From positions 1 through 35,011 of the forward strand of contig JBIOXB010000010.1 of NCBI GenBank assembly GCA_044869275.1: a DNA stretch of 35,011 nucleotides, written 5' to 3'. The position numbers and the translations under genes are program-made. The DNA comes from a bacterium. GTDB lineage: Bacteria > Zhuqueibacterota > Zhuqueibacteria > Zhuqueibacterales > Zhuqueibacteraceae. Shown one piece after another: positions 1 through 12,693 of the stretch; positions within the stretch are counted from its first letter, which is position 1, and each line of letters opens with the position of its first letter. The notes beneath the pieces were generated by a model that saw only the letters and a list, made by a program, of their open reading frames with translations, searched no databases and was not told the origin of the DNA.

Positions 1-2
1 TG

Positions 3-24
3 AGAATTTTGGAATCAAAATTCT
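3..24. repeat. Perfect 9-bp hairpin just downstream of the stop codon of the 534-aa ORF; candidate element-end structure or terminator
   Basis: AGAATTTTG (3-11), loop GAAT, CAAAATTCT (16-24) is a perfect inverted repeat. Confidence 0.8.
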
Positions 25-43
25 TTACAAACAGAGCAAGTTA

Positions 44-1648
44 TTAGACCGTCGCTGGGACTGCAATCATCGCGCGTTTTATCCATTCATCGATGATCTT
101 TGCAGTTTTGTTCAGCGCTTGAGCCAAGTCCGATGGAAACGGTTGCTTGGGGAGGAGCGCCGCCAGTCCCGGACGAAATAGGCGCTCATAAAGTTTAACG
201 AAGAACGTAGCGATTTTGGCACCCAATTCCGTTAGCCTGTAACTCTGAGAATGAGCAAGGCGTTCAACCAACTCCTTCAGTCGCAAGCGTCTTAAATCAT
301 AAGACATCTGCGCACAGGTGTATTCGGATTGCGGAACGCCTATCAGTTGCGCGACAATCGGGCGCAGGGTTTTGTTGCGGAGTTCACCTGGCACATGCGA
401 ATAGTTGATCAAAGCCGCGAACACCGCCATGACGCGCCGATCACCAAAGCGCAATGCGGAGGCGCGTTGGCCATCGGGGCCAACTGTGGACTGGCTCAAT
501 CGCCGGATGTCCTCGATCGGGACATAACAATCTTGTCGGATACGCTCCTGCTCTAATAAGCGGCGATTGATTTGTCGTCCGAGTTGTTGCAAACGATCGA
601 AATGGACGAGACCGCGTGGACAATCAAAATCCCGGGGATTGTTGAACATGGTTTCGGTGCGTAAACCGCGTCCGTCTTTAAAGTACTGTTTGAGCGCACT
701 ATGCTTGTAGCCAATCTTGATGCTGGGCAGAACGCCTTTGCGAAGCACGCGCGTGTAGAACTCACTGCGCGTTCTTTTGGTGACCCGACGATTAAAGATC
801 AGGCTGATCCGGTCCGGGCGGCCGAGATCGAGGTTATCTCGAATGAGATTCTCGACAAAGGCGCGCCCTTGTTCCGCATCTGCAAACACCTGTGTGCGGC
901 TGACTTCCATCTGCCAAATGCTCAATAGGTGTTGATACCCGGCCGCGCGTTGTTTCGCGGTGAGCGGCCAAGGCAATTGGTCGATCCAGTGATCGAAAAG
1001 CGCCTGAATCTTTTCCTGATTTAATTGGTCACAAATTTCCTGTAAACGTTGCGGAGCTTCGCAACTAGCGAAGCCGTTACTCAAGGGCTCGAAGGTGATG
1101 CGCGCTTTGCGCAATTGTTGTTTGGCCCTTTCATGGCCATTGAAGCAGACTTTGACTTCAAATGGAAAGTAGGTACAAACTTTGATGAAGATCAGGCCAA
1201 AATCTTGATCCATGATATAGAAATAGTAATGGATCACATTCACCGTACGACGAAAATATTTGAACCAGACTCTCTTGCCGTGGTCCTCGCGACGAGCGCC
1301 ATAGGTGCTGGCTTTCTCTTGGGCCTTACCAATCAAAACCACACCGTGCTTGGTTTTGAGATGTTCGGCGTGTTGACGCGCCACTTCATCTTTATCTTCG
1401 CCTTTGCTAAAGGTGTAGATTTTCAAACCCTGTGCTAGGGCATACTGTTCGACGGCTTGGCGAAATTGGTCTGACATTTGATACATGCCTTTGGGAGAAG
1501 GAATGGGCCAGCCAAACTGTCGGCAAATAAAATTGATGACGCCACCAGGCATTTGAAGAAACTTGACGTAACCATTCAAGTAAACACGATCGACGCATTC
1601 GATGTCTAATGTAATTTTGCCTGGGAGTATTTCATGAACGGTTGGCAT
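44..1648 (-). CDS. Putative transposase or rolling-circle initiator-like protein with C-terminal winged helix-turn-helix (534 aa)
   Basis: Intact long ORF. Motifs TLDIECVDRVYLNGY, IWQMEVSRTQVF, SALKQYFKDGRGLRTET (Tyr322, Glu332), LRFGDRRV and a wHTH-like MSYDLRRLRLKELVER...YRLTELG. I saw no DDE triad or HUH motif. Confidence 0.6.
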   Translation of the reverse strand: MPTVHEILPGKITLDIECVDRVYLNGYVKFLQMPGGVINFICRQFGWPIPSPKGMYQMSDQFRQAVEQYALAQGLKIYTFSKGEDKDEVARQHAEHLKTKHGVVLIGKAQEKASTYGARREDHGKRVWFKYFRRTVNVIHYYFYIMDQDFGLIFIKVCTYFPFEVKVCFNGHERAKQQLRKARITFEPLSNGFASCEAPQRLQEICDQLNQEKIQALFDHWIDQLPWPLTAKQRAAGYQHLLSIWQMEVSRTQVFADAEQGRAFVENLIRDNLDLGRPDRISLIFNRRVTKRTRSEFYTRVLRKGVLPSIKIGYKHSALKQYFKDGRGLRTETMFNNPRDFDCPRGLVHFDRLQQLGRQINRRLLEQERIRQDCYVPIEDIRRLSQSTVGPDGQRASALRFGDRRVMAVFAALINYSHVPGELRNKTLRPIVAQLIGVPQSEYTCAQMSYDLRRLRLKELVERLAHSQSYRLTELGAKIATFFVKLYERLFRPGLAALLPKQPFPSDLAQALNKTAKIIDEWIKRAMIAVPATV

Positions 1649-1702
1649 AGGTCACACTCGGCAAAGTGAGACGCAAGCAAGATAAAGAAGGTCAATCCAA
1701 TC

Positions 1703-1929
1703 TAACTGTCAAACAGAACAAGCGCAAACCGTTCTTTTGAAATATAACGCTGATCAAACAAAGACTCGTCTCAAACACGATGCCCATTCCGTGGGAGTTC
1801 TGATTCCGTGGGCGAAGTTTCCAACAGATTATTGCCGGCGCTCATCCGTTGGTCTTTATCTATCCGTTGGAAAAAATAAAGAACTCTAGACACTCGTCGG
1901 TTTGAGGCGAAGCTTCGCTGGACAGTTAC
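1703..1929. repeat. Nested inverted-repeat (MITE/REP-like) region between the element ORF and nagB
   Basis: TAACTGTCAA (1703-1712) / TGGACAGTTA (1919-1928). CGTCTCAAAC (1767-1776) / GTTTGAGGCG (1900-1909). TTTCCAACAGAT (1818-1829) / ATCCGTTGGAAA (1862-1873). Direct repeats ATTCCGTGGG (1786, 1803) and ATCCGTTGG (1844, 1862). Palindrome GCGAAGCTTCGC (1907-1918). Confidence 0.55.
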
Positions 1930-1961
1930 GAAGTGTGAATTATTGTTGAGGGAGGTGCGCC

Positions 1962-2705
1962 ATGCTGGTTTTGGTGAAAGAAAGCTTTGAAGAAATGAGC
2001 CAGGTGGCGGCGCAATTGGTCGCCACATTGATTCGCAGAAAACCAAACTGCGTGCTGGGTTTTGCCACCGGCGGCACGCCTCTGGGACTGTATCGCGAGC
2101 TGATTCGCATGCACCACAGCGAGGGCCTGGATTTTTCCAAAGTCACTACTTTTAATTTGGATGAGTACGTCGGGCTGCCGCCGGAACACGATCAAAGCTA
2201 TCATTACTTCATGTGGGAGAATCTATTCAAGCACCTCAACGTCGACCGGCGGTTCGTCCATATTCCCATGGGCATGTCGCATGACATCGAGGCGCACTGC
2301 GAATGGTATGAGGCGCAAATCGAAAAATGCGGAGGCCTCGATCTGCAAATTCTCGGCATTGGAGCAAACGGGCACATTGCGTTCAACGAGCCGGGCTCTT
2401 CCCTGGGTTCGCGCACACGCATCAAAACGCTCACCGGCACGACGCGTGAAGCCAATGCCCGCTTCTTCAAAAATCCCGACGAAGTACCGCAGTATGCCAT
2501 CACCATGGGTGTGGGTACGATCATGGATGCGCGCGATCTGCTGCTGGTCGCCAACGGCGAGGGTAAGGCCGACGCAATTAAAGCGACGATCGAAGGCCCG
2601 ATCACGGCTTTGGTGCCTGCGACCATCGTGCAGATGCATCGCCGCGCCACCATCATCGTCGATCGCGCCGCCGCCAGCAAGCTGCAGGGCCGCTACACCG
2701 ATTGA
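1962..2705 (+). CDS. nagB: Glucosamine-6-phosphate deaminase
   Basis: Motifs VLGFATGGTP, TFNLDEYVGL, LGIGANGHIAFNEPGS, AITMGVGTI. 247 aa. GGAGG RBS at 1951-1955. Confidence 0.97.
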   Translation: MLVLVKESFEEMSQVAAQLVATLIRRKPNCVLGFATGGTPLGLYRELIRMHHSEGLDFSKVTTFNLDEYVGLPPEHDQSYHYFMWENLFKHLNVDRRFVHIPMGMSHDIEAHCEWYEAQIEKCGGLDLQILGIGANGHIAFNEPGSSLGSRTRIKTLTGTTREANARFFKNPDEVPQYAITMGVGTIMDARDLLLVANGEGKADAIKATIEGPITALVPATIVQMHRRATIIVDRAAASKLQGRYTD

Positions 2706-2848: not shown

Positions 2849-3979
2849 TCAATTGCGCATGCGAAAGTCGCGCGCCATCCTCAAGCTTTCCTGCAAAACA
2901 ATTTTGATCACAGCCAATAGCGGCGCCGCGAGAAAAAGCCCCCACACCCCAGCCAGGCCTCCTCCGACGATTATTCCCAGGATCGTTTCCAGCGGCCTCA
3001 AAACCATGCCAGCTTTTAAGAAACGCAGGGACATCGCCGCGTCTTTCATCAGATCGATCGTCGCGAAGGCCAGGAGCATGGGAAGAATCAAGCTGTAAGC
3101 ACCAGCCGCCACCACGCCGATCATGAGCGCCATCGTCGCGCCCAGGAGGCTCCCGAAATACGGCGTGAGGCTGCTGAGGCCGGCGAACATTCCCAGGATC
3201 AAAAAGCAGGGCACCTGCATCAAATAAAAAGCGAAGGCCATGAGGGCGGTGACGGCGCAGGCGGTTAGCGCCTGCGCCCGCCACAACTGTTGCAGGCGTG
3301 TGGGCAGCGTATGCAGCAGCCAGACGGTTTTTTCCAAATGGCGATTGGCAACGGCTTTGATCAGCGCACGGCGCATGATCTGGCCCTCGGCCAGCAAGAC
3401 CAGAATCAAAATCGCCAACAGAACCAGGGCGGGCCAGGTGGTGAGCAGAACGGAAGTGAGGCTCAGCGCGCTGAGCTCGACGGCTTTCTTCCAGTGGTCA
3501 TAGTCAGCGAGCAGCCGTTGTTTGAACATGGCGTTTTGCAGCCAGGGCAAAACCTCTCCCAACCAGGACACCGCGCGCCCGCCGAATTGCTCCGGTTTTT
3601 TCGACGCAAAGAAAGAGGAAATGGCTTCTGCCTCTTGCGCCAGGCGCTGGGCAAAAGGCGGAAAAACGCCAAAGAGAATCAGAGCGGAGAGCGCAAAAAC
3701 GGCAGCGACTCCGGTAGAACGCGACCAGCCTTTTTTTTCAAAAAAAGAGACGGCGGGCTCGAACAAAGAGGCAATGATGACGGCCAGAAAGAGCTGGCCG
3801 GCAGCGAAAGTTACATACGAATACAGCCACAGCAGCGCGGTCAAAACCGCGAGGCCGGCAATTAAAAGGCGGCGCGCAGGAGCTGGTGGCTGGGGTGGCG
3901 GAGCAGGTGGTGTTGGCGAATGTGAGGGGCGAGCCGAGCGTCGAGTCTTGACTTTGAAATAAGCCCGCTTCGGGGTCAT
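2849..3979 (-). CDS. AI-2E family transporter
   Basis: Multi-TM protein with IIASLFEPAVSFFEKKGWSR, GMFAGLSSLTPYFGSLLG and GGGLAGVWGLFLAAPLLAVIK motifs. Pro-rich N-terminus. Start overlaps the stop of the upstream gene (ATGA, 3976-3979). Confidence 0.88.
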   Translation of the reverse strand: MTPKRAYFKVKTRRSARPSHSPTPPAPPPQPPAPARRLLIAGLAVLTALLWLYSYVTFAAGQLFLAVIIASLFEPAVSFFEKKGWSRSTGVAAVFALSALILFGVFPPFAQRLAQEAEAISSFFASKKPEQFGGRAVSWLGEVLPWLQNAMFKQRLLADYDHWKKAVELSALSLTSVLLTTWPALVLLAILILVLLAEGQIMRRALIKAVANRHLEKTVWLLHTLPTRLQQLWRAQALTACAVTALMAFAFYLMQVPCFLILGMFAGLSSLTPYFGSLLGATMALMIGVVAAGAYSLILPMLLAFATIDLMKDAAMSLRFLKAGMVLRPLETILGIIVGGGLAGVWGLFLAAPLLAVIKIVLQESLRMARDFRMRN

Positions 3980-4536
3980 ACGACGAGATCCGCGCGCTCG
4001 AGTTGCGCGCGCAGTTTTTGCATTTCCGAGTTGCTGTATTTCAGACGCTCACCGATAATGAGCGCGAGCTGGAACAAGAACTTGTTGCCCAGGCGCGGTT
4101 TGCGGTCCAGCAAGCTGAACAGGTCGGGCCGGAACAGGCCGAGAATTTTGGTTTCTTCTTTGGCAATAGCCGTGGCAGAGCGTGGCGACTCGTCCAGCAG
4201 TGCCAACTCGCCGAAGAATTCTCCTCCTTTCAACGTCGCCAGCACTTTGCGTTCTTCGGAGGAGAAATACTTGCTGATGGTGACGCTGCCGCGATGGATG
4301 ATGTACATGCCCACCCCGGGCTCGCCTTCCCAAAAAATCGTTTCGCCGGCCTTGAAGCTGCGGCGGTGAATGATCTTCTCGAACTCGCGCAATTCGCCGT
4401 TGTTCATATTGCTGAAGAGCGGCACCTGGCGCAGCACGTGCAAGATGTCTTCAGCGTCGCCGGCTTTTTTACCGAAGATATTGCCCCACACGGAGTCGGC
4501 AGCTGGTGAAGCAGCCTTGGGATGATCGTCCTTCAT
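3976..4536 (-). CDS. Stand-alone cyclic-nucleotide-binding domain protein (no C-terminal HTH)
   Basis: LRQVPLFS...GETIFWEGEPGVGMYIIHRGSV...GEFFGELALLDESPRSATA phosphate-binding cassette. Protein ends shortly after the C-helix. Confidence 0.92.
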   Translation of the reverse strand: MKDDHPKAASPAADSVWGNIFGKKAGDAEDILHVLRQVPLFSNMNNGELREFEKIIHRRSFKAGETIFWEGEPGVGMYIIHRGSVTISKYFSSEERKVLATLKGGEFFGELALLDESPRSATAIAKEETKILGLFRPDLFSLLDRKPRLGNKFLFQLALIIGERLKYSNSEMQKLRAQLERADLVV

Positions 4537-4542
4537 GGCGCC

Positions 4543-4571
4543 AATATACTGATCGCCACCGCCGCTGTCAA
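4543..4571 (-). promoter_or_regulatory. Sigma70-type promoter, probably giving a leaderless mRNA for the cNMP protein/AI-2E operon
   Basis: Minus strand TTGACA (4571-4566), 17 nt, TATATT (4548-4543), 6 nt, ATG (4536). No SD sequence. Confidence 0.75.
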
Positions 4572-4618
4572 GTTTTTCCTCGGTAACAAATTGAAACCCG
4601 AGCTGCTGGCCGGAGCCT

Positions 4619-5605
4619 TTATGGCAGGGATGAATGCGAACCCATCCCGCTGGAAAAATTGGATTTCAGAAAATCTAAAACCCTTTGTTCGTACAGTGCC
4701 GGATTGCTTGCAAACGCCGCGCCGTGTTTTGCTCCCTCAACGACGACCAGCTTTTTGTGCGTGCTGGGAGAATGGTCGTAGAGCAACTGCGAGATTTCCG
4801 GCGGCATGCGCACGTCCGCGCTGCCGGCAATGAAAAGAATGGGCCGGTCGCCGATGCGCTCGAGCGCACGGCGCATGTCGAATTGCCCGGCATTGAAGCC
4901 CACGCGCCATTTGGTGAAGAGAATGATTTCATCCGCCACCGGAAAGCGCGGCAGGCCCAGCCATATTTTCGCGTGGTGGGCGATGAGATGATCGAAAGAA
5001 AGGAAACTGCTGTCCAGAATCAGGCCCGCGATTTCCGGCGTTTCCGCGGCGGCGAGCATGGCGGCGGCAGTGCCCATGGAAACCGCAGAGGCCACAATGG
5101 GCTGCTGCACGTGCAGGCTGTCGCGCAGAAAACGCACCGCACCCAGCATGTCCAGCCTTTCGAGATAACCCGCACCGGTGAGCTCACCGCCACTTTCGCC
5201 GTGGCGGCGGAAGTCAAAGAGCAAGCCGGCATATCCTTGCTTTTGAAAATGCACCGCACGCTCCAGCAATTCCAGACGCGAGCGGAACAGCCCATGGCCA
5301 TAGACCATGGCCACGCGCGAGCTTTCCGCCGGCAGCCACCATCCGGCCAGTGGCGTGCCGTCGGCGGAATTGAAATGCACGCGGCGATAGGCTGCGCCAT
5401 ATTGCTCGGGCGTGACGTTCATGACGCGATCGCTGGGCCGCGAGCGCGCATGGGTCAAGAACCAGGAAAGCATAAAGGGCACTACGAAAAAGACAAAAAC
5501 AAAAATGACTACCCCGAGCCCGATGAGCACTCGCTTGATCCAGCGCCAAAGGCCTGTGCTTCTTGGAGATCGCGAATCTTTCATTTTGTTATCCTGGTGA
5601 TTCAT
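4619..5605 (-). CDS. Membrane-anchored alpha/beta hydrolase (Hydrolase_4/S33-like)
   Basis: N-terminal TM helix. DGTPLAGWW, YGHG, FDFRRHGES, nucleophile elbow AVSMG, GSAD (Asp), GAKHG (His). Confidence 0.88.
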   Translation of the reverse strand: MNHQDNKMKDSRSPRSTGLWRWIKRVLIGLGVVIFVFVFFVVPFMLSWFLTHARSRPSDRVMNVTPEQYGAAYRRVHFNSADGTPLAGWWLPAESSRVAMVYGHGLFRSRLELLERAVHFQKQGYAGLLFDFRRHGESGGELTGAGYLERLDMLGAVRFLRDSLHVQQPIVASAVSMGTAAAMLAAAETPEIAGLILDSSFLSFDHLIAHHAKIWLGLPRFPVADEIILFTKWRVGFNAGQFDMRRALERIGDRPILFIAGSADVRMPPEISQLLYDHSPSTHKKLVVVEGAKHGAAFASNPALYEQRVLDFLKSNFSSGMGSHSSLP

Positions 5606-5620
5606 GCTAATCTTACTGCC

Positions 5621-7090
5621 TCAAACGGGAGATTCTTCCGCGCGCATGGGAATAGGCTGTCGCTTTTTCCTGCTCTCCAACAACGCGAGCACCGGCCCGG
5701 TCATGAAAGTCGTTACCAGCGCCATGCTGACCATCATGGCAAACATGCGCGGGGCAAGGATGCCCAGGTCGTATCCGATATTGAGCACGACGAGTTCCAT
5801 CAAGCCGCGGGTGTTCATCAAAGCGCCGAGGGCGGTGGACTCGTGCCAGCTCATGCCGGTCCAGCGCGCGGCCAGCATGCTCCCGCCAAATTTTCCCACG
5901 ATCGCGACGGCAATAATGCCGGCGCACGTGAGCCAGCTCGATCCGTCATCGAGCAGCGCAATCTGCGTGCGCAAGCCGGTGAAAGCGAAAAAGATCGGCA
6001 AGAGAAAAACCGAGCTAAAGGTTTCGAGGCGTTCGCGCAAAAACGCGCGCAATCCCGGTTGCGCGGGCATGATAACGCCCGCGAGAAACGCACCAAACAG
6101 CGCATGGATGCCGATGATTTCCGTTGAAAGCGCCGCCATGAAGACGAACGCCAAAATACCGGCGACCCGCCCTTTGCTATGCCTCTCGCCGCGCGCATTG
6201 CCACCGAACAAGCGGACGGCGCTCGGCTTGAGCAAGAAAAGCATGACGGCGATAAAAAGCACGGCGAGGCCGATGGTCAACAGCGAGCCGCCCAGGCCGC
6301 GCGACTTCACGATCGCCACTACCACGGCAAGCATGCACCATGCCGTCACGTCGTCCACCGCGGCGCACGCGATCGCCGTCCGGCCGAGATGGCTTTGGGA
6401 CATGCCGCGTTCTTCCAGAATACGCGCCAACACCGGGAATGCCGTGATGCTCATCGCAATCCCCATGAACAGCGCGAATGCCACGAAGGAAACATGCGCC
6501 GGCGCCAGCATGGGATAGAGGAGCAAAGACAAGGCCGCGCCCAAGCAAAACGGAATCAGGATGCTGGCGTGGCTTACCAAGATCGTCGCATGCGCTTTGT
6601 GGCGGAGATGCTGCACATCCAATTCAATGCCGACGATGAACATGAAAAGAATGACCCCGATTTGACTCAGCGCATGCAGCGTGCCCATGGCAGCGGCCGG
6701 AAACAGAGAGGCCTGCACTTCGGGAGACAATATGCCCAACAACGAGGGGCCAAGAATGATGCCGGCAATCGTCTCGCCGATCACCCCGGGCTGGCCGAAT
6801 TTCAGAAACAGCGCGCCGAGTAATCGGGCGGCGGCGATGATCACCAGCAATTGCAGCAGCAAAATGCCCAAAGGGTGCTGCAGGTTTTCGGTCAAGACTT
6901 CGGCAATGCCCGCGGAGGAAGCTTCGGAATCAGGCGCAGTGGGAGAAAAAACATTCAGCGGCTGAGAGCGGGAGCTTTGCTCAGTTTGCACCCCGCTGGG
7001 TTGCAGGCGCGAACCGCGCGCGAGAATGAAATAAAGCCCGGCGCCGCAGATCAAAAGCACGGCGAGATATAAGAAAAGGTTTTTCCGCAT
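5621..7090 (-). CDS. Cation:proton antiporter (CPA2 / Kef-type membrane domain)
   Basis: GQPGVIGETIAGIILGPSLLG, AMSITAFPVLARIL, AAVDDVTAW, LMNTRGLMELVVLNIG. Start moved to ATG 7090 (MRKNLF) because the longer ORF overlaps the upstream gene. Confidence 0.92.
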   Translation of the reverse strand: MRKNLFLYLAVLLICGAGLYFILARGSRLQPSGVQTEQSSRSQPLNVFSPTAPDSEASSAGIAEVLTENLQHPLGILLLQLLVIIAAARLLGALFLKFGQPGVIGETIAGIILGPSLLGILSPEVQASLFPAAAMGTLHALSQIGVILFMFIVGIELDVQHLRHKAHATILVSHASILIPFCLGAALSLLLYPMLAPAHVSFVAFALFMGIAMSITAFPVLARILEERGMSQSHLGRTAIACAAVDDVTAWCMLAVVVAIVKSRGLGGSLLTIGLAVLFIAVMLFLLKPSAVRLFGGNARGERHSKGRVAGILAFVFMAALSTEIIGIHALFGAFLAGVIMPAQPGLRAFLRERLETFSSVFLLPIFFAFTGLRTQIALLDDGSSWLTCAGIIAVAIVGKFGGSMLAARWTGMSWHESTALGALMNTRGLMELVVLNIGYDLGILAPRMFAMMVSMALVTTFMTGPVLALLESRKKRQPIPMRAEESPV

Positions 7091-8950: not shown

Positions 8951-10315
8951 TTATCGGGGTTCATAGTTGGTCACGAAGTAATCATCGATCAACCCGGCGG
9001 CTTTGAGGCTGTCGGCGGCGACGCGTGCCCGCCGCGCGGAGGGATATTTTCCCACGCGCACGCGATACCAACCGCGGGAGGAATGGGGTTCCAGCACATA
9101 TACCTCGAGCCGGCGGCGTTGCAACAATCCGGCCGCCGCATCGGCGCTGCGCTTGTCTTTGAGCGCGACGACTTGCAGCGAGAAGTAGTGCGTGGTATCC
9201 GGCGCGGTGGAGGCTTGCGGCGCAGCCGCCTCGGGCAGGCGTGAAAAAGAGAACGACCGCGTCAAATAGATGATTCCGATCAGGGACAAAATCATCAAGC
9301 CCAGCGTGAGCTCGCGCTTGTACGGGCGCAGCCAGGAGAGGCCTTCCCACAGCCACTGGCGCAATTGAAACTGCAAGTGCGCCACCTGCTCATGCGCTGA
9401 TTTTTTCTCAACCTGCTTCTCCGCTTTCAGCCAGCCCGCTTTTTCTTCCGGCGTGAGGTGCGCGGCGCGGGAAGCAACTTGCTGTGCCAGCGCATCATAT
9501 CGGCGCGCTTTTTGATAAGCGTCATGCAATGCATACAAAGCCTGGCGCACGCGAGGGTCGTGCCCGGCACGGCGGTCGAAAGCATGCATGAGGCACCAAG
9601 CGGAAAAATCATCACGGCGAGGATGCTGCAAAACTTTCCGCAGGCACAAGGCGAGAATTTCATCTGTCAGCGGCCCGCCCCGGGACAAATACTTCGCATA
9701 AAAATATTCGGCGCGATAATGCGTTTTTCTTTCTTTCAGGAAATGCTCGACAAAAAACGTCGCGAGTGTTTCATCCTCCGGGCGGTAATCGAGCAGTTCC
9801 TCGGCAAGATTGGCAACCTCCAGCGTCAGCGTTTTCTGATTGAGAACATGAGATTTCAAAACATGATAAGCTTCTTCCGGGCGCACGCCGGAGCGCATGG
9901 CCATGACGAGCTGCTCTTGAAAATCGCTGCGCTCGGGATGCTCGGCGTAAAACGGAAAATAGCTGCGCAACAATTGCCGTTGCAGGCCCCGCTGTTTCTG
10001 TGCCGACAACAAACCGCCGCGCAGCAATTGCAACAGCAGTGCGAAAACTTCCTGCACCTCGTTTTCGCGGTTGCTTTCCAGCAGCAGTTTGCCGCGATTG
10101 TGCAGAAACTCAAAACGCCTTTCGCCTTCGCGCGTGAGATACTGGCTCGCCAGCGCGAAAAGGCCGAGGCCGAGCAACGCGACCATGATTTCATCAAACA
10201 AATTGCTTTGCGGCAGGAAAACCTCATGCACCAGCCAGAGCACTAAGAACGCCGTGGGAAGCAGCGCCACCAGGCTCCAAAACAGCCGCAAAACGAGCCA
10301 GCGAAAAGTGGTCAT
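8951..10315 (-). CDS. Membrane protein with C-terminal SPOR (peptidoglycan-binding) domain
   Basis: Two N-terminal TM helices, long helical region, third TM, Ala/Pro linker, then YFSLQVVAL...GWYRVRVGKYPSARRAR...LKAAGLIDDYFV. Confidence 0.8.
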   Translation of the reverse strand: MTTFRWLVLRLFWSLVALLPTAFLVLWLVHEVFLPQSNLFDEIMVALLGLGLFALASQYLTREGERRFEFLHNRGKLLLESNRENEVQEVFALLLQLLRGGLLSAQKQRGLQRQLLRSYFPFYAEHPERSDFQEQLVMAMRSGVRPEEAYHVLKSHVLNQKTLTLEVANLAEELLDYRPEDETLATFFVEHFLKERKTHYRAEYFYAKYLSRGGPLTDEILALCLRKVLQHPRRDDFSAWCLMHAFDRRAGHDPRVRQALYALHDAYQKARRYDALAQQVASRAAHLTPEEKAGWLKAEKQVEKKSAHEQVAHLQFQLRQWLWEGLSWLRPYKRELTLGLMILSLIGIIYLTRSFSFSRLPEAAAPQASTAPDTTHYFSLQVVALKDKRSADAAAGLLQRRRLEVYVLEPHSSRGWYRVRVGKYPSARRARVAADSLKAAGLIDDYFVTNYEPR

Positions 10316-10568
10316 TCTGATTTGTGCGCTTGAGTTCTAGCCACGTAACCAAACCTGTAAGCCCGGAAACCGGTTGTGCGTTCCTGCGTTCAAATCTTCA
10401 CAGAGCGTATTGTCCAAAATTCCTATGCGAGAGCAAAATGCAAGTCGAGTATTCGCCTGGCTTTTCTTCGTGAAACTCTGTGATACAAACTTGCAAAACT
10501 CTGCTTTTTTAGCAAAGTTTCTGGCGTAGTCAGCCAGAAGTGATAACCCTGCAAAAAATAATAATTAA

Positions 10569-10637
10569 TTCCACGCGGATCAAAACACCACGCGGATAGT
10601 TTATAATTTTCCGTGTGGTGTTTTGATCCGTGTGGAA
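10569..10637. repeat. 28-bp-arm hairpin built from two CCACGCGGA units per arm
   Basis: Arm 10569-10596 pairs with 10610-10637 around a 13-nt loop. The only two non-Watson-Crick pairs are G:T on the plus strand. Followed by GCGGC-TCA-GCCGC (10649-10661). Confidence 0.9.
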
Positions 10638-10743
10638 CCATTTTGGTTGCGGCTCAGCCGCGCTGTGTGCTTTGTGTTGTTCTTTTGGGCTGAGATTGAT
10701 TCTAAATGTAACATAGTCACGTTACATACTCTACAGATTATGA

Positions 10744-12693
10744 TCACGGCCAAAAACCATCCGACTGGGCCTCCGCGGGCACGACCACGGCGATGCCTTC
10801 TTCCGGATTGGACACTTCGTTGCCCGTGACCGGATCGACGTACAACGTGCGCAAACCCTCTGGCACAGCGAATTCACGCGCGGGATAAAGTTCCGTGGCG
10901 CGCTTCATGAAATTCGCCCAAATCGGCGCGCCGCCGCGCGCGCCATCGACCTCCCGGCCTTCTTTGGTGCGCATGACAGAGTCACGGTCGTATCCCACCC
11001 ATACCGAAGTCGACAAGCTGGTGGTGAAGCCGGTAAACCAGGCATCGGTCGCTTCCGTGCTGGTGCCGGTCTTGCCGGCAGCAGGCGCCGTGAAGCCCAG
11101 GCTGCGAATCACGCGGCCGGTGCCTTGCTCGATCACCCCCATCATCATGTCCAGCAATTCATACGTTTGCGCGGGATCAAAGCGCGGCTCGCCGAGGCCA
11201 AACAGGCTCACGGCAGAATCCAGCACGATGCCGTTGAGGTCTTCGACCCGTTTGATCAGAGCCGGGCGATGATATTCGCCGTTATTGGCAATCACCGCAT
11301 ACGCCGAAGCCATCTCCATGGGCGAGACGCTGGAGGTGCCCAGCGCGATCGACAAAACTTCTTCCAGCGGCGCGGTCATGCCGAAGCGCCGCATGGTTTC
11401 CACCACTTTTCTCGGTGTGGCTTGAGCGGTGAGCTGCGCCGCGATCAGATTGACGGATTGCATCAGTGCGGCTTTCAAGATCAGCGCGCCGCGATAACGC
11501 CGGTCATAATTGCGCGGCCGCCAGGGCCGCGTCCCCGGCGGATTGAACGTCATGGCGGTGTCATAAACCACGCTGCGCGGGGAGAGGCCGAGCTGCTCAA
11601 TCGCCGTCATATAAATGAACGGCTTCACGCCCGAACCGATGTGGCGGTTTTCAGTGACCGCGCGGTTGAAGCCGCCGGGCACGTATTCCCGTGCCCCGAC
11701 CAGCGCCTTGATCTCGCCCGTGGGCACCGTCACCACCGCCATCGCGCCTTGCAGGCGATTGCCGGTGGAATCGAGCGCGGCTTCGAGCTGGGCCACGCCC
11801 TCGCGCAATTCCTCCTCGGCCAGGCGCTGGAGCGTGGGATCGAGGGTGGTGTAAATGCGCAAGCCGCCGAATTGTACGGCCTCGCGGCCATAGCGCTTTT
11901 CGGCTTCGGTGATCACGTAGTCGAGAAAGTCATTGCCCAGCGTGCGGCGCCGCGACAGCCGCAGCGAATCCGCAAAAGCGCTTTGCATCTCCTCCGGAGT
12001 AATGAAGTCATTTTTTACCATGCGACCCAGAATGAGCTTCTGCCGTGCTTTGGCTTTGTCTAAGTGCGAAAACGGATTCAGAGTCGAGGGCGAGTTGACG
12101 ATGCCCGCCAGCAATGCGGCTTCGGGCAGATTCAGCGCCGCAGCTGGTTTGTTGAAAAACTGCTGCGCCGCGTCCTCGACGCCATAAGCCGCGCCGCCGA
12201 AATAAACCAAGTTGCAGTACGCCTCCAGAATCTGCTCTTTGCGAAAGGTGGTCTCCATCTGAAAGCTGATCAGAATCTCCTTGACCTTGCGCAGCAAAGA
12301 CTTCTCGAAAGAGAAAAAAAGATTCTTGGTGAGCTGCTGCGTAATCGTCGAGCCGCTTTGCAGCGAATGGCCGGTGAGGCTGCGAAATGCTCCGCGCAGC
12401 GTGGCGAGCTTATCCACGCCGTGATGCCGGTAGAATCTGCCATCCTCTGCCGCCACCACCGCTTGCAAGAATTGGGGGCTGATCTGCTCGATGGTGACGT
12501 AGGAACGGCCACCGAGGCGGTACACCAAGCTGCCATCGGCCGCATAGATTTCCGTCGGCCGCGCATACACCAGACTGCGCAAATCTTCGGGAACATAGGG
12601 CAGGTCTTGCAACACCACAAAAAAACCGACGATGGTGATGAGCAAGAAAATGGTCATGCATACGACGAGGCTAAAACTGAGACGGGCTTTCAT
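10744..12693 (-). CDS. Class A penicillin-binding protein (PBP1A family transglycosylase/transpeptidase)
   Basis: TG motifs EDGRFYRHHG, GSTITQQLTKN, RKVKE. TP motifs SGVK (SxxK), SVN (SxN), KTG. Start taken at ATG 12693 (MKARLSF), just before the TM anchor. Confidence 0.95.
   Translation of the reverse strand: MKARLSFSLVVCMTIFLLITIVGFFVVLQDLPYVPEDLRSLVYARPTEIYAADGSLVYRLGGRSYVTIEQISPQFLQAVVAAEDGRFYRHHGVDKLATLRGAFRSLTGHSLQSGSTITQQLTKNLFFSFEKSLLRKVKEILISFQMETTFRKEQILEAYCNLVYFGGAAYGVEDAAQQFFNKPAAALNLPEAALLAGIVNSPSTLNPFSHLDKAKARQKLILGRMVKNDFITPEEMQSAFADSLRLSRRRTLGNDFLDYVITEAEKRYGREAVQFGGLRIYTTLDPTLQRLAEEELREGVAQLEAALDSTGNRLQGAMAVVTVPTGEIKALVGAREYVPGGFNRAVTENRHIGSGVKPFIYMTAIEQLGLSPRSVVYDTAMTFNPPGTRPWRPRNYDRRYRGALILKAALMQSVNLIAAQLTAQATPRKVVETMRRFGMTAPLEEVLSIALGTSSVSPMEMASAYAVIANNGEYHRPALIKRVEDLNGIVLDSAVSLFGLGEPRFDPAQTYELLDMMMGVIEQGTGRVIRSLGFTAPAAGKTGTSTEATDAWFTGFTTSLSTSVWVGYDRDSVMRTKEGREVDGARGGAPIWANFMKRATELYPAREFAVPEGLRTLYVDPVTGNEVSNPEEGIAVVVPAEAQSDGFWP

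Follow-up and report, generated by a model that had tools for sequence, protein, structure and literature searches.

The window examined here, a stretch of 35,011 nucleotides that forms the start of contig C10 of genome G000, carries a genuine multi-copy insertion sequence at positions 4-1921 of the minus strand (1,918 bp), which encodes a single protein and inserts 5' of a YYAG target without target duplication. Its only gene likely specifies an undescribed kind of transposase. We judge the odds to be somewhat better than even that the element represents a widespread, undescribed class of bacterial transposons which uses a TBP-fold (Rep_trans-type) tyrosine nickase, has reached the strategy of IS91 and the Helitrons independently of HUH enzymes, and inserts its cargo without a scar 5' of YYAG. 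The features of the element and its surroundings are as follows.

4-1921 (-): whole insertion sequence; flanks diverge among copies, and the exact ends are placed from junctions of mini-elements in genome G016
1918-1921 (-): element-encoded, target-like tetramer CCAG, which opens the left end (G000 and G016 junctions)
1893-1917 (-): conserved left-end motif CGARGCTYCGCCTCARACCGACRAG, common to Burkholderia elements
1907-1918 (-): short palindrome beside the left tetramer; hairpin weak (z 0.67)
1649-1892 (-): 5' leader, whose short internal repeats are found again in mini-elements of G000
44-1648 (-): intact open reading frame (ORF) of a 534-aa putative transposase
533-1615 (-): predicted TBP/Rep_trans-fold catalytic domain, residues 12-372 (structure model and fold searches)
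1589-1591, 905-907, 683-685, 659-661 and 653-655 (-): codons of D20, E248, Y322, R330 and E332, respectively
149-523 (-): MarR/HxlR-like winged-helix (wHTH) domain, residues about 376-500
4-45 (-): right end, with AACTTG motif, terminating in ...AAAATTC
3-24 (-): right-end subterminal hairpin (z -2.28; 8 of 200 shuffles equally good)
1-3 (-): target-derived TCA; the flank syntenic with the window copy (contig C224) has CCAT instead
1922-1930 (-): left half of the target, CGTAACTGT, the end of the host dispersed repeat GTAACTRT-TCAG

Copies and composition of the element

The element shows defined ends, several copies with different flanks, and empty sites. Contigs C98 and C132 agree with window 127-1 over their first 127 bases and diverge after that point, and contig C85 is identical to window 1803-1922 and divergent beyond, so that two contigs of G000 (C10, C85) supply left flanks and three (C98, C132, C224) right flanks. 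Window 1-1922 is found as a collapsed contig (public unitig) in sequencing runs X1, which may be the source sample, and X3; its depth in X1 is 33.8 versus 11.2-11.6 for the flanks, a depth that is not a copy number. An additional insertion site was seen in run X2.

The left end of the window copy lies 40 bases from an ordinary nagB gene (glucosamine-6-phosphate deaminase, window 1962-2705). Contig C224 terminates in 30 bases of the element right end, and the gene at its end is the upstream neighbor of nagB in three of seven relatives (G011, G002 and also G001, which is unpublished; G011 and G002 suffice for the claim), indicating that the element sits between that gene and nagB. The syntenic site lacks the element in G011, G002 and G001. 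The C224 junction (CCAT) is a single contig tip that was not among the run X1 contigs examined, and the TCA at window 1-3 likely came from the C98 or C132 copies during assembly. The last 20 bases of C224 look like a sequencing adapter, an assembly artefact. In a related strain of run X2, the sequence upstream of nagB keeps window 1917-1922 without the element, which is weak support for an element-free allele; the other side of this empty-like sequence matched no G000 flank. Homologues are present in only 24 of the 167 genomes of the phylum, and a search for related loci returned two distant loci only.

The initial annotation had proposed a candidate insertion element at 44-1648 and had named a single-copy gene syntenic across relatives as one outcome that would speak against it. 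The element proved to be multi-copy, with divergent flanks, and is missing at the syntenic site in G011 and G002. Those coordinates correctly delimit an intact 534-aa ORF on the minus strand and fall short of the element itself, whose ends at 4 and 1921 had been missed. The lower GC content noted at the same time is a modest drop (50.2% versus 54.8% for the genome).

Terminal inverted repeats are absent, the first 30 bases being complementary to the last 30 at 5 of 30 positions, and the leader has no match in Rfam. Across the family the right end follows the pattern AACTTGACTCA-N~20-TCAAG-N4. The left-end motif CGARGCTYCGCCTCARACCGACRAG together with the adjoining palindrome is likely a protein-binding or cleavage signal. 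The conserved right-end motif of relatives contains an outward-facing TTGACT, a -35-like hexamer and a possible outward promoter; the window's own variant was not picked up by a promoter scan, which found one site versus 1.9 expected.

The predicted catalytic protein and its family

The motifs QMEVSRT, KQYFK and LRTE begin at residues 246, 320 and 329 of the protein, which places E248, Y322 and E332 where the initial annotation had them. These residues, whose lack of conservation it had named as contrary evidence, are together with R330 nearly invariant among 81 aligned homologues (E248 in 80, Y322 in 79, R330 in 80 and E332 in 79), beyond what chance would give, and KxYxK and LRxE persist in members that are only about 25% identical. 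The originally proposed catalytic set was incomplete, as it lacked a third acidic residue, D20, which is kept in 73 of the 74 ungapped rows of the homologue alignment. All five residues lie on predicted beta-strands.

The full-length structure model (pLDDT 91.5, pTM 0.82) and a model of residues 1-372 (pLDDT 93.4, pTM 0.90) predict an N-terminal domain with a TBP/Rep_trans fold and not an RNase H fold, the match being weak and shared with TBP. Foldseek placed RepSTK1 (4cij) at ranks 1-4 (E 2.9e-4 to 6.4e-4, probability 0.98, TM 0.25-0.34). The top VIA-align rows were TBP and Rep_trans proteins (Z 7.2-8.8, rmsd 3.5-4.8, 174-188 residues aligned), in alignments that span most of the domain and whose scores are moderate and partly tied: RepSTK1 gave Z 7.3 (rmsd 4.5, 188 aligned), RepDE gave Z 7.2 (rmsd 4.8, 178 aligned), and TBP, at Z 8.8, equaled or exceeded the Rep_trans scores. 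The structural alignments begin at 12:1 for RepSTK1 and 13:39 for RepDE, so D20 would fall on D9 and D46, respectively, if the first strand is ungapped. The protein contains no HxH and no HUH motif. Taken together, the models point to a Rep_trans-fold tyrosine nickase as the likely enzyme, in keeping with the original proposal of a Rep_trans-type nickase that is neither a DDE nor a HUH transposase. The C-terminal wHTH that had been read from the sequence was recovered by structure as well: residues about 376-500 match proteins of the winged-helix type, with Z values reaching 9.9 and an rmsd of 2.3 for 88 residues.

Sequence searches place the protein in no named family. The window protein has no Pfam match at E<=1, so neither PF02486 nor PF25227 is detected. 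The 81 members match 29 Pfam families (E<=0.1), and the 25 of these that were listed do not include PF02486. A six-frame Rep_trans search of G000 gave no signal at the element locus, and the same type of search in 167 genomes of the phylum returned three sub-threshold matches only. No family name was obtained from Pfam, NCBIfam or PHROGs, searches of the PDB by sequence and profile gave no identification, and the ESM Atlas contains unnamed clusters only. Of 7,999 scored candidates, 5,966 are homologues, and the family comprises 8,624 clusters at 50% identity. Its named hosts are all bacteria and include Burkholderia, Rhodococcus, Mycobacterium and Bradyrhizobium plasmids (25 of 72,556 records). 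Members are labeled in databases as hypothetical proteins or as HxlR or ArsR regulators, which is the mislabeling that the wHTH had led the initial annotation to expect. With a large family filed under such labels, counts of insertion sequences miss both these elements and their mini-elements of 80-600 bp.

Our literature search, which ran mostly outside subscription journals, returned no description of a Rep_trans-type transposase in the portions of text it covered. The digIS supplements list putative new IS groups and might include this family (PMC8147514).

The Mycobacterium riyadhense plasmid record (L016) has eight family matches, among them two divergent members in tandem at 2986-6406, directly behind IS4-family genes. 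Contig C108 of G000 contains, at 10230-11139 (-), an open frame that fuses a cytidylyltransferase-like start (identified by eye) to a wHTH fragment. This weak match was rejected as a family member, being a weakly similar fragment of the wHTH only.

Insertion junctions, mini-elements and alternatives

The insertion rule is read most clearly from non-coding mini-elements, which have the same left and right ends as the full element. One identical mini of G016 begins with CCAG in all eight copies, and on its right side it is followed by TCAG (four times), TTAG and CTAG on six contigs. It lands in a host repeat ending in GTAACTRT-NNAG. Filled sites in G016 carry CCAG in 13 of 14 cases and TCAG in none of the 14, versus 5 and 39, respectively, of 54 unfilled sites; the Fisher p of 4e-9 for CCAG at filled versus unfilled sites overstates the difference, as the sites are not independent. 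An exact pair is available in contigs C450 (empty) and C332 (filled), which have the same flanks and differ by the mini insert CCAG...AAAATC, with nothing gained or lost. In Burkholderia, the empty alleles carry CTAG (SFA1, NK8) or TAAG (RPE67) and the filled site CTAA; two Burkholderia copies show sharp boundaries and have the left motif in common with the window, and a plasmid search for the empty sites of two Burkholderia flanks found none. The G016 counts, the exact pair and the Burkholderia alleles together indicate that the start tetramer belongs to the element and that insertion takes place 5' of the target tetramer. By this rule the window element spans 4-1921, and the CCAT of the C224 junction fits.

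The left tetramer is CCAG in the window, as in both left junctions of G000, and CTAR in most relatives; CTA precedes a variable purine in 95 of 120 left ends. Among 30 complete elements (counting four rows of one array, at locus L075, as one), the right tetramer is CTAG in 27 and equals the left tetramer in 12. Target duplications of four, three or two bases are ruled out by unequal ends (L076, L017, L133, L111) and again by the C332/C450 pair. A cut after YYA with an element-encoded right trinucleotide was also considered and was dropped given the G016 junctions and the exact pair.

The host repeat GTAACTRT-TCAG is the preferred target of this lineage of elements. Distinct from the element itself is an abundant host repeat family of this lineage, about 100-250 bp long and with inverted ends GTAACTRTTCAG, in which the element and its minis land by preference (window 1922-1930; G000; L270-L280 in G016).

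G000 contains more than ten decayed minis, and the two ends of an element may measure as little as about 30 and 45 bases. The 22-base left-end motif matches an estimated 6000 stretches of metagenome sequence; a homologous ORF lies downstream in 26 of the 59 distinct matches with at least 600 bases available, and many of the remaining matches are minis of 80-600 bp. Several variants were observed. Five mini-elements stand head to tail with 81-bp spacing at L075:2497-2910, the final unit being a different variant. In L138 and L085 (minus strand), the right-end tetramer of the first mini type has received an insertion of another type, about 95 bp long and starting with CTAACCTTGTGCAGG, whose end resembles the right end of a distant homologue in L005. 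Three loci (L040, L056, L074) have an inverted copy of the left-end motif 25-45 bases downstream, giving a long hairpin. In minis of seven G000 contigs (C4, C60, C89, C94, C184, C211, C217), CGAAGCTTCG is replaced by a larger hairpin at the left end, CGAATCCCGAC...TCGGGA.

A stricter version of our main reading is true rolling-circle transposition of the IS91/Helitron type, with one end as origin, the other as a leaky terminator, and flanking genes carried along; we give this slightly less than an even chance. The layout of the ends is IS91-like, and Rep_trans enzymes initiate rolling-circle replication (PMC5714925). Plasmid YI23 has a 7,458-base identical duplication that starts exactly at the element left end and runs for 5.6 kb beyond the right end, up to an IS66 boundary, with more than 17 kb of donor flank in common with SFA1. 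However, a single plasmid of SFA1 carries both the empty site and the donor, in the same orientation; insertion and subsequent recombination between copies therefore account for the YI23 duplication as well as read-through does. A deletion beside locus L258 is also explained by recombination between two copies, and under rolling-circle transfer YI23 and L258 would indicate opposite ends as the origin. The left-end-only loci examined (first 330 bases) show no clear cargo between intact ends.

The head-to-tail array L075 is what concatemers would look like, but tandem arrays were set aside as proof of them, because re-insertion at the element's own start tetramer gives the same outcome. The one right-end/left-end junction of a diverged mini that was seen in run X4 can arise in the same way. 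Among the contigs examined, no excised circle of the full element was seen.

Rhodococcus copies with equal right flanks were likewise discarded as cases of read-through in view of their symmetric placement near linear-plasmid ends. On the Rhodococcus koreensis linear plasmid, one copy lies about 13.8 kb from either end (L176, L180); the outer flanks of the two are identical, so that the terminal repeat appears to have its inner border at the element left end.

It is improbable that both strands are exchanged at a four-base core, as by a site-specific recombinase or an IS110-type enzyme, possibly with a nucleic-acid guide in the leader. A core common to both junctions, the lack of duplication and the long preferred target of this lineage (GTAACTRT-YCAG) would suit such an exchange, but this long target merely forms the end of a host repeat that is abundant, the crossover lies at the core's edge and not in its interior, and the predicted fold is neither DEDD nor tyrosine-recombinase-like. 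An analysis of linear pairing at the left end revealed no Watson-Crick covariation between the left flank and the first 48 element bases in 120 loci, and the top covarying pair (z 8.6) was not complementary when tabulated.

Transposition by single-strand cut-and-rejoin, in which the ORF is the transposase, may also be weighed against two readings that deny the ORF this role. Known transposase families do not match the protein and the elements often adjoin the ends of other mobile elements, as a non-autonomous element moved by another transposase with a passenger replication or regulatory gene might, but we regard this as very unlikely, since the ORF fills the element, the same end motifs accompany it in distant phyla, its catalytic-type residues are conserved, and the minis retain the ends only. 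Equally hard to credit is the reading in which a small plasmid, or the remnant of a filamentous phage, has integrated and its Rep initiates replication: the Rep_trans-like fold and a domain order as in the archaeal Rep-Arvir proteins would fit, but the element is 1.9 kb with one gene and neither integrase nor virion genes, occupies many unrelated sites, and has no match in 50,697 phage records.

Proposed mechanism and comparison with known systems

We consider it probable that the element is an autonomous insertion sequence moved by single-strand cut-and-rejoin through its predicted Rep_trans-type tyrosine nickase, with Y322 as the inferred agent of nicking and cross-ligation. In this model, Y322 would nick one strand at the tetramer and hold the 5' phosphate, with D20, E248 and E332 binding metal and the wHTH binding the end motifs. 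One strand would be released and its ends joined, creating the junction ...AAAATTC|CCAG..., and the same nick in a target followed by cross-ligation would yield an insertion whose second strand is made by host replication. By analogy with IS91, the strand moved would be that opposite the ORF, with cleavage 3' of CTRR, and the right end would serve as origin and the left as terminus; release could occur either by rolling-circle synthesis or by peel-and-paste.

In the literature consulted, the single-strand transposons IS91/ISCR, IS200/IS605, Helitrons and Replitrons use HUH enzymes, and the only roles given for Rep_trans proteins are those of replication initiator and conjugative relaxase (PMC5714925, PMC13107129). 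If our reading is correct, a Rep_trans-fold transposase would be a new catalytic class of transposase, and the second family of rolling-circle nickases would also have given rise to transposons. Short ends, a defined target and insertion without duplication make the system easily tested and a candidate insertion tool.

DDE insertion sequences with CTAG or TA targets (IS5, IS630, IS701) possess terminal inverted repeats and duplicate their target; the element does neither. The TnpA of IS200/IS605 is a small Y1 HUH enzyme, in contrast to a 534-aa protein with no HUH, and linear guide-target pairing of the IS200/IS605 kind was not detected in 120 left ends. The CTRR that follows a hairpin on the strand opposite the ORF resembles the Helitron 3' end. 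IS200/IS605 elements and Helitrons share with the element hairpin-bearing unlike ends, tetranucleotide targets, lack of duplication and non-autonomous derivatives, but both use HUH enzymes (PMC5714925), and the element has no HUH, TnpB or helicase.

Among replication proteins, the predicted domain resembles Rep_trans/MOB_T enzymes (RepSTK1, 4CIJ; RepDE, 4CWC and 4CWE) in its curved TBP-like sheet, a first-strand acidic residue, a second acidic strand, a beta-strand tyrosine (KxYxK) and a downstream RxE. PMC4797284 and PMC13107129 give the RepDE active site as D46, D142, E214 and Y191 and state that Rep_trans proteins share the sheet of TBP. Unlike these proteins, the element protein has QxE in place of the Rep_trans RxD motif, lacks a PF02486 match, is 9-13% identical, and has about 100 extra residues in the domain and a C-terminal wHTH; it is also encoded by an insertion sequence, whereas Rep_trans proteins occur on replicons and conjugative elements. 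A CT/AA nick site of MOB_T relaxases was not confirmed in PMC6499999 and plays no part in our reading.

Alike in domain order are the Rep-Arvir proteins (DUF7845, PF25227; RepSNJ2), in which a TBP-fold domain is likewise followed by a MarR-like wHTH, and which share a viral structure match (A0A2N9QVX7) with the element protein. According to PMC13107129, their residues E25, D207, Y283 and E303 stand in the same order as D20, E248, Y322 and E332, and the tyrosine and two acidic residues are essential. The same text reports Rep-Arvir from archaea only, where these proteins act in replication and are found on viruses, plasmids and integrative elements, whereas the element is found in bacteria; there is no sequence match between the two.

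Like IS91/ISCR, the element has no inverted repeats and makes no duplication, and it shares with IS91 a target-like tetramer upstream of the ORF with an adjacent palindrome and a target tetramer beside the downstream end; only the bottom-strand circle of IS91 inserts (10.1101/2025.01.24.634351). The enzymes differ, as IS91 uses a HUH (Y2) enzyme with its tyrosines in a helix, while the element protein has no HUH, a different predicted fold and its tyrosine on a predicted strand, and the targets differ as well (CTTG/GTTC for IS91, YYAG/CTRR for the element). The tests that define IS91, IS200/IS605, Rep_trans and Rep-Arvir place the element outside each of these groups; at the DNA level, as its junctions show, it works like IS91.
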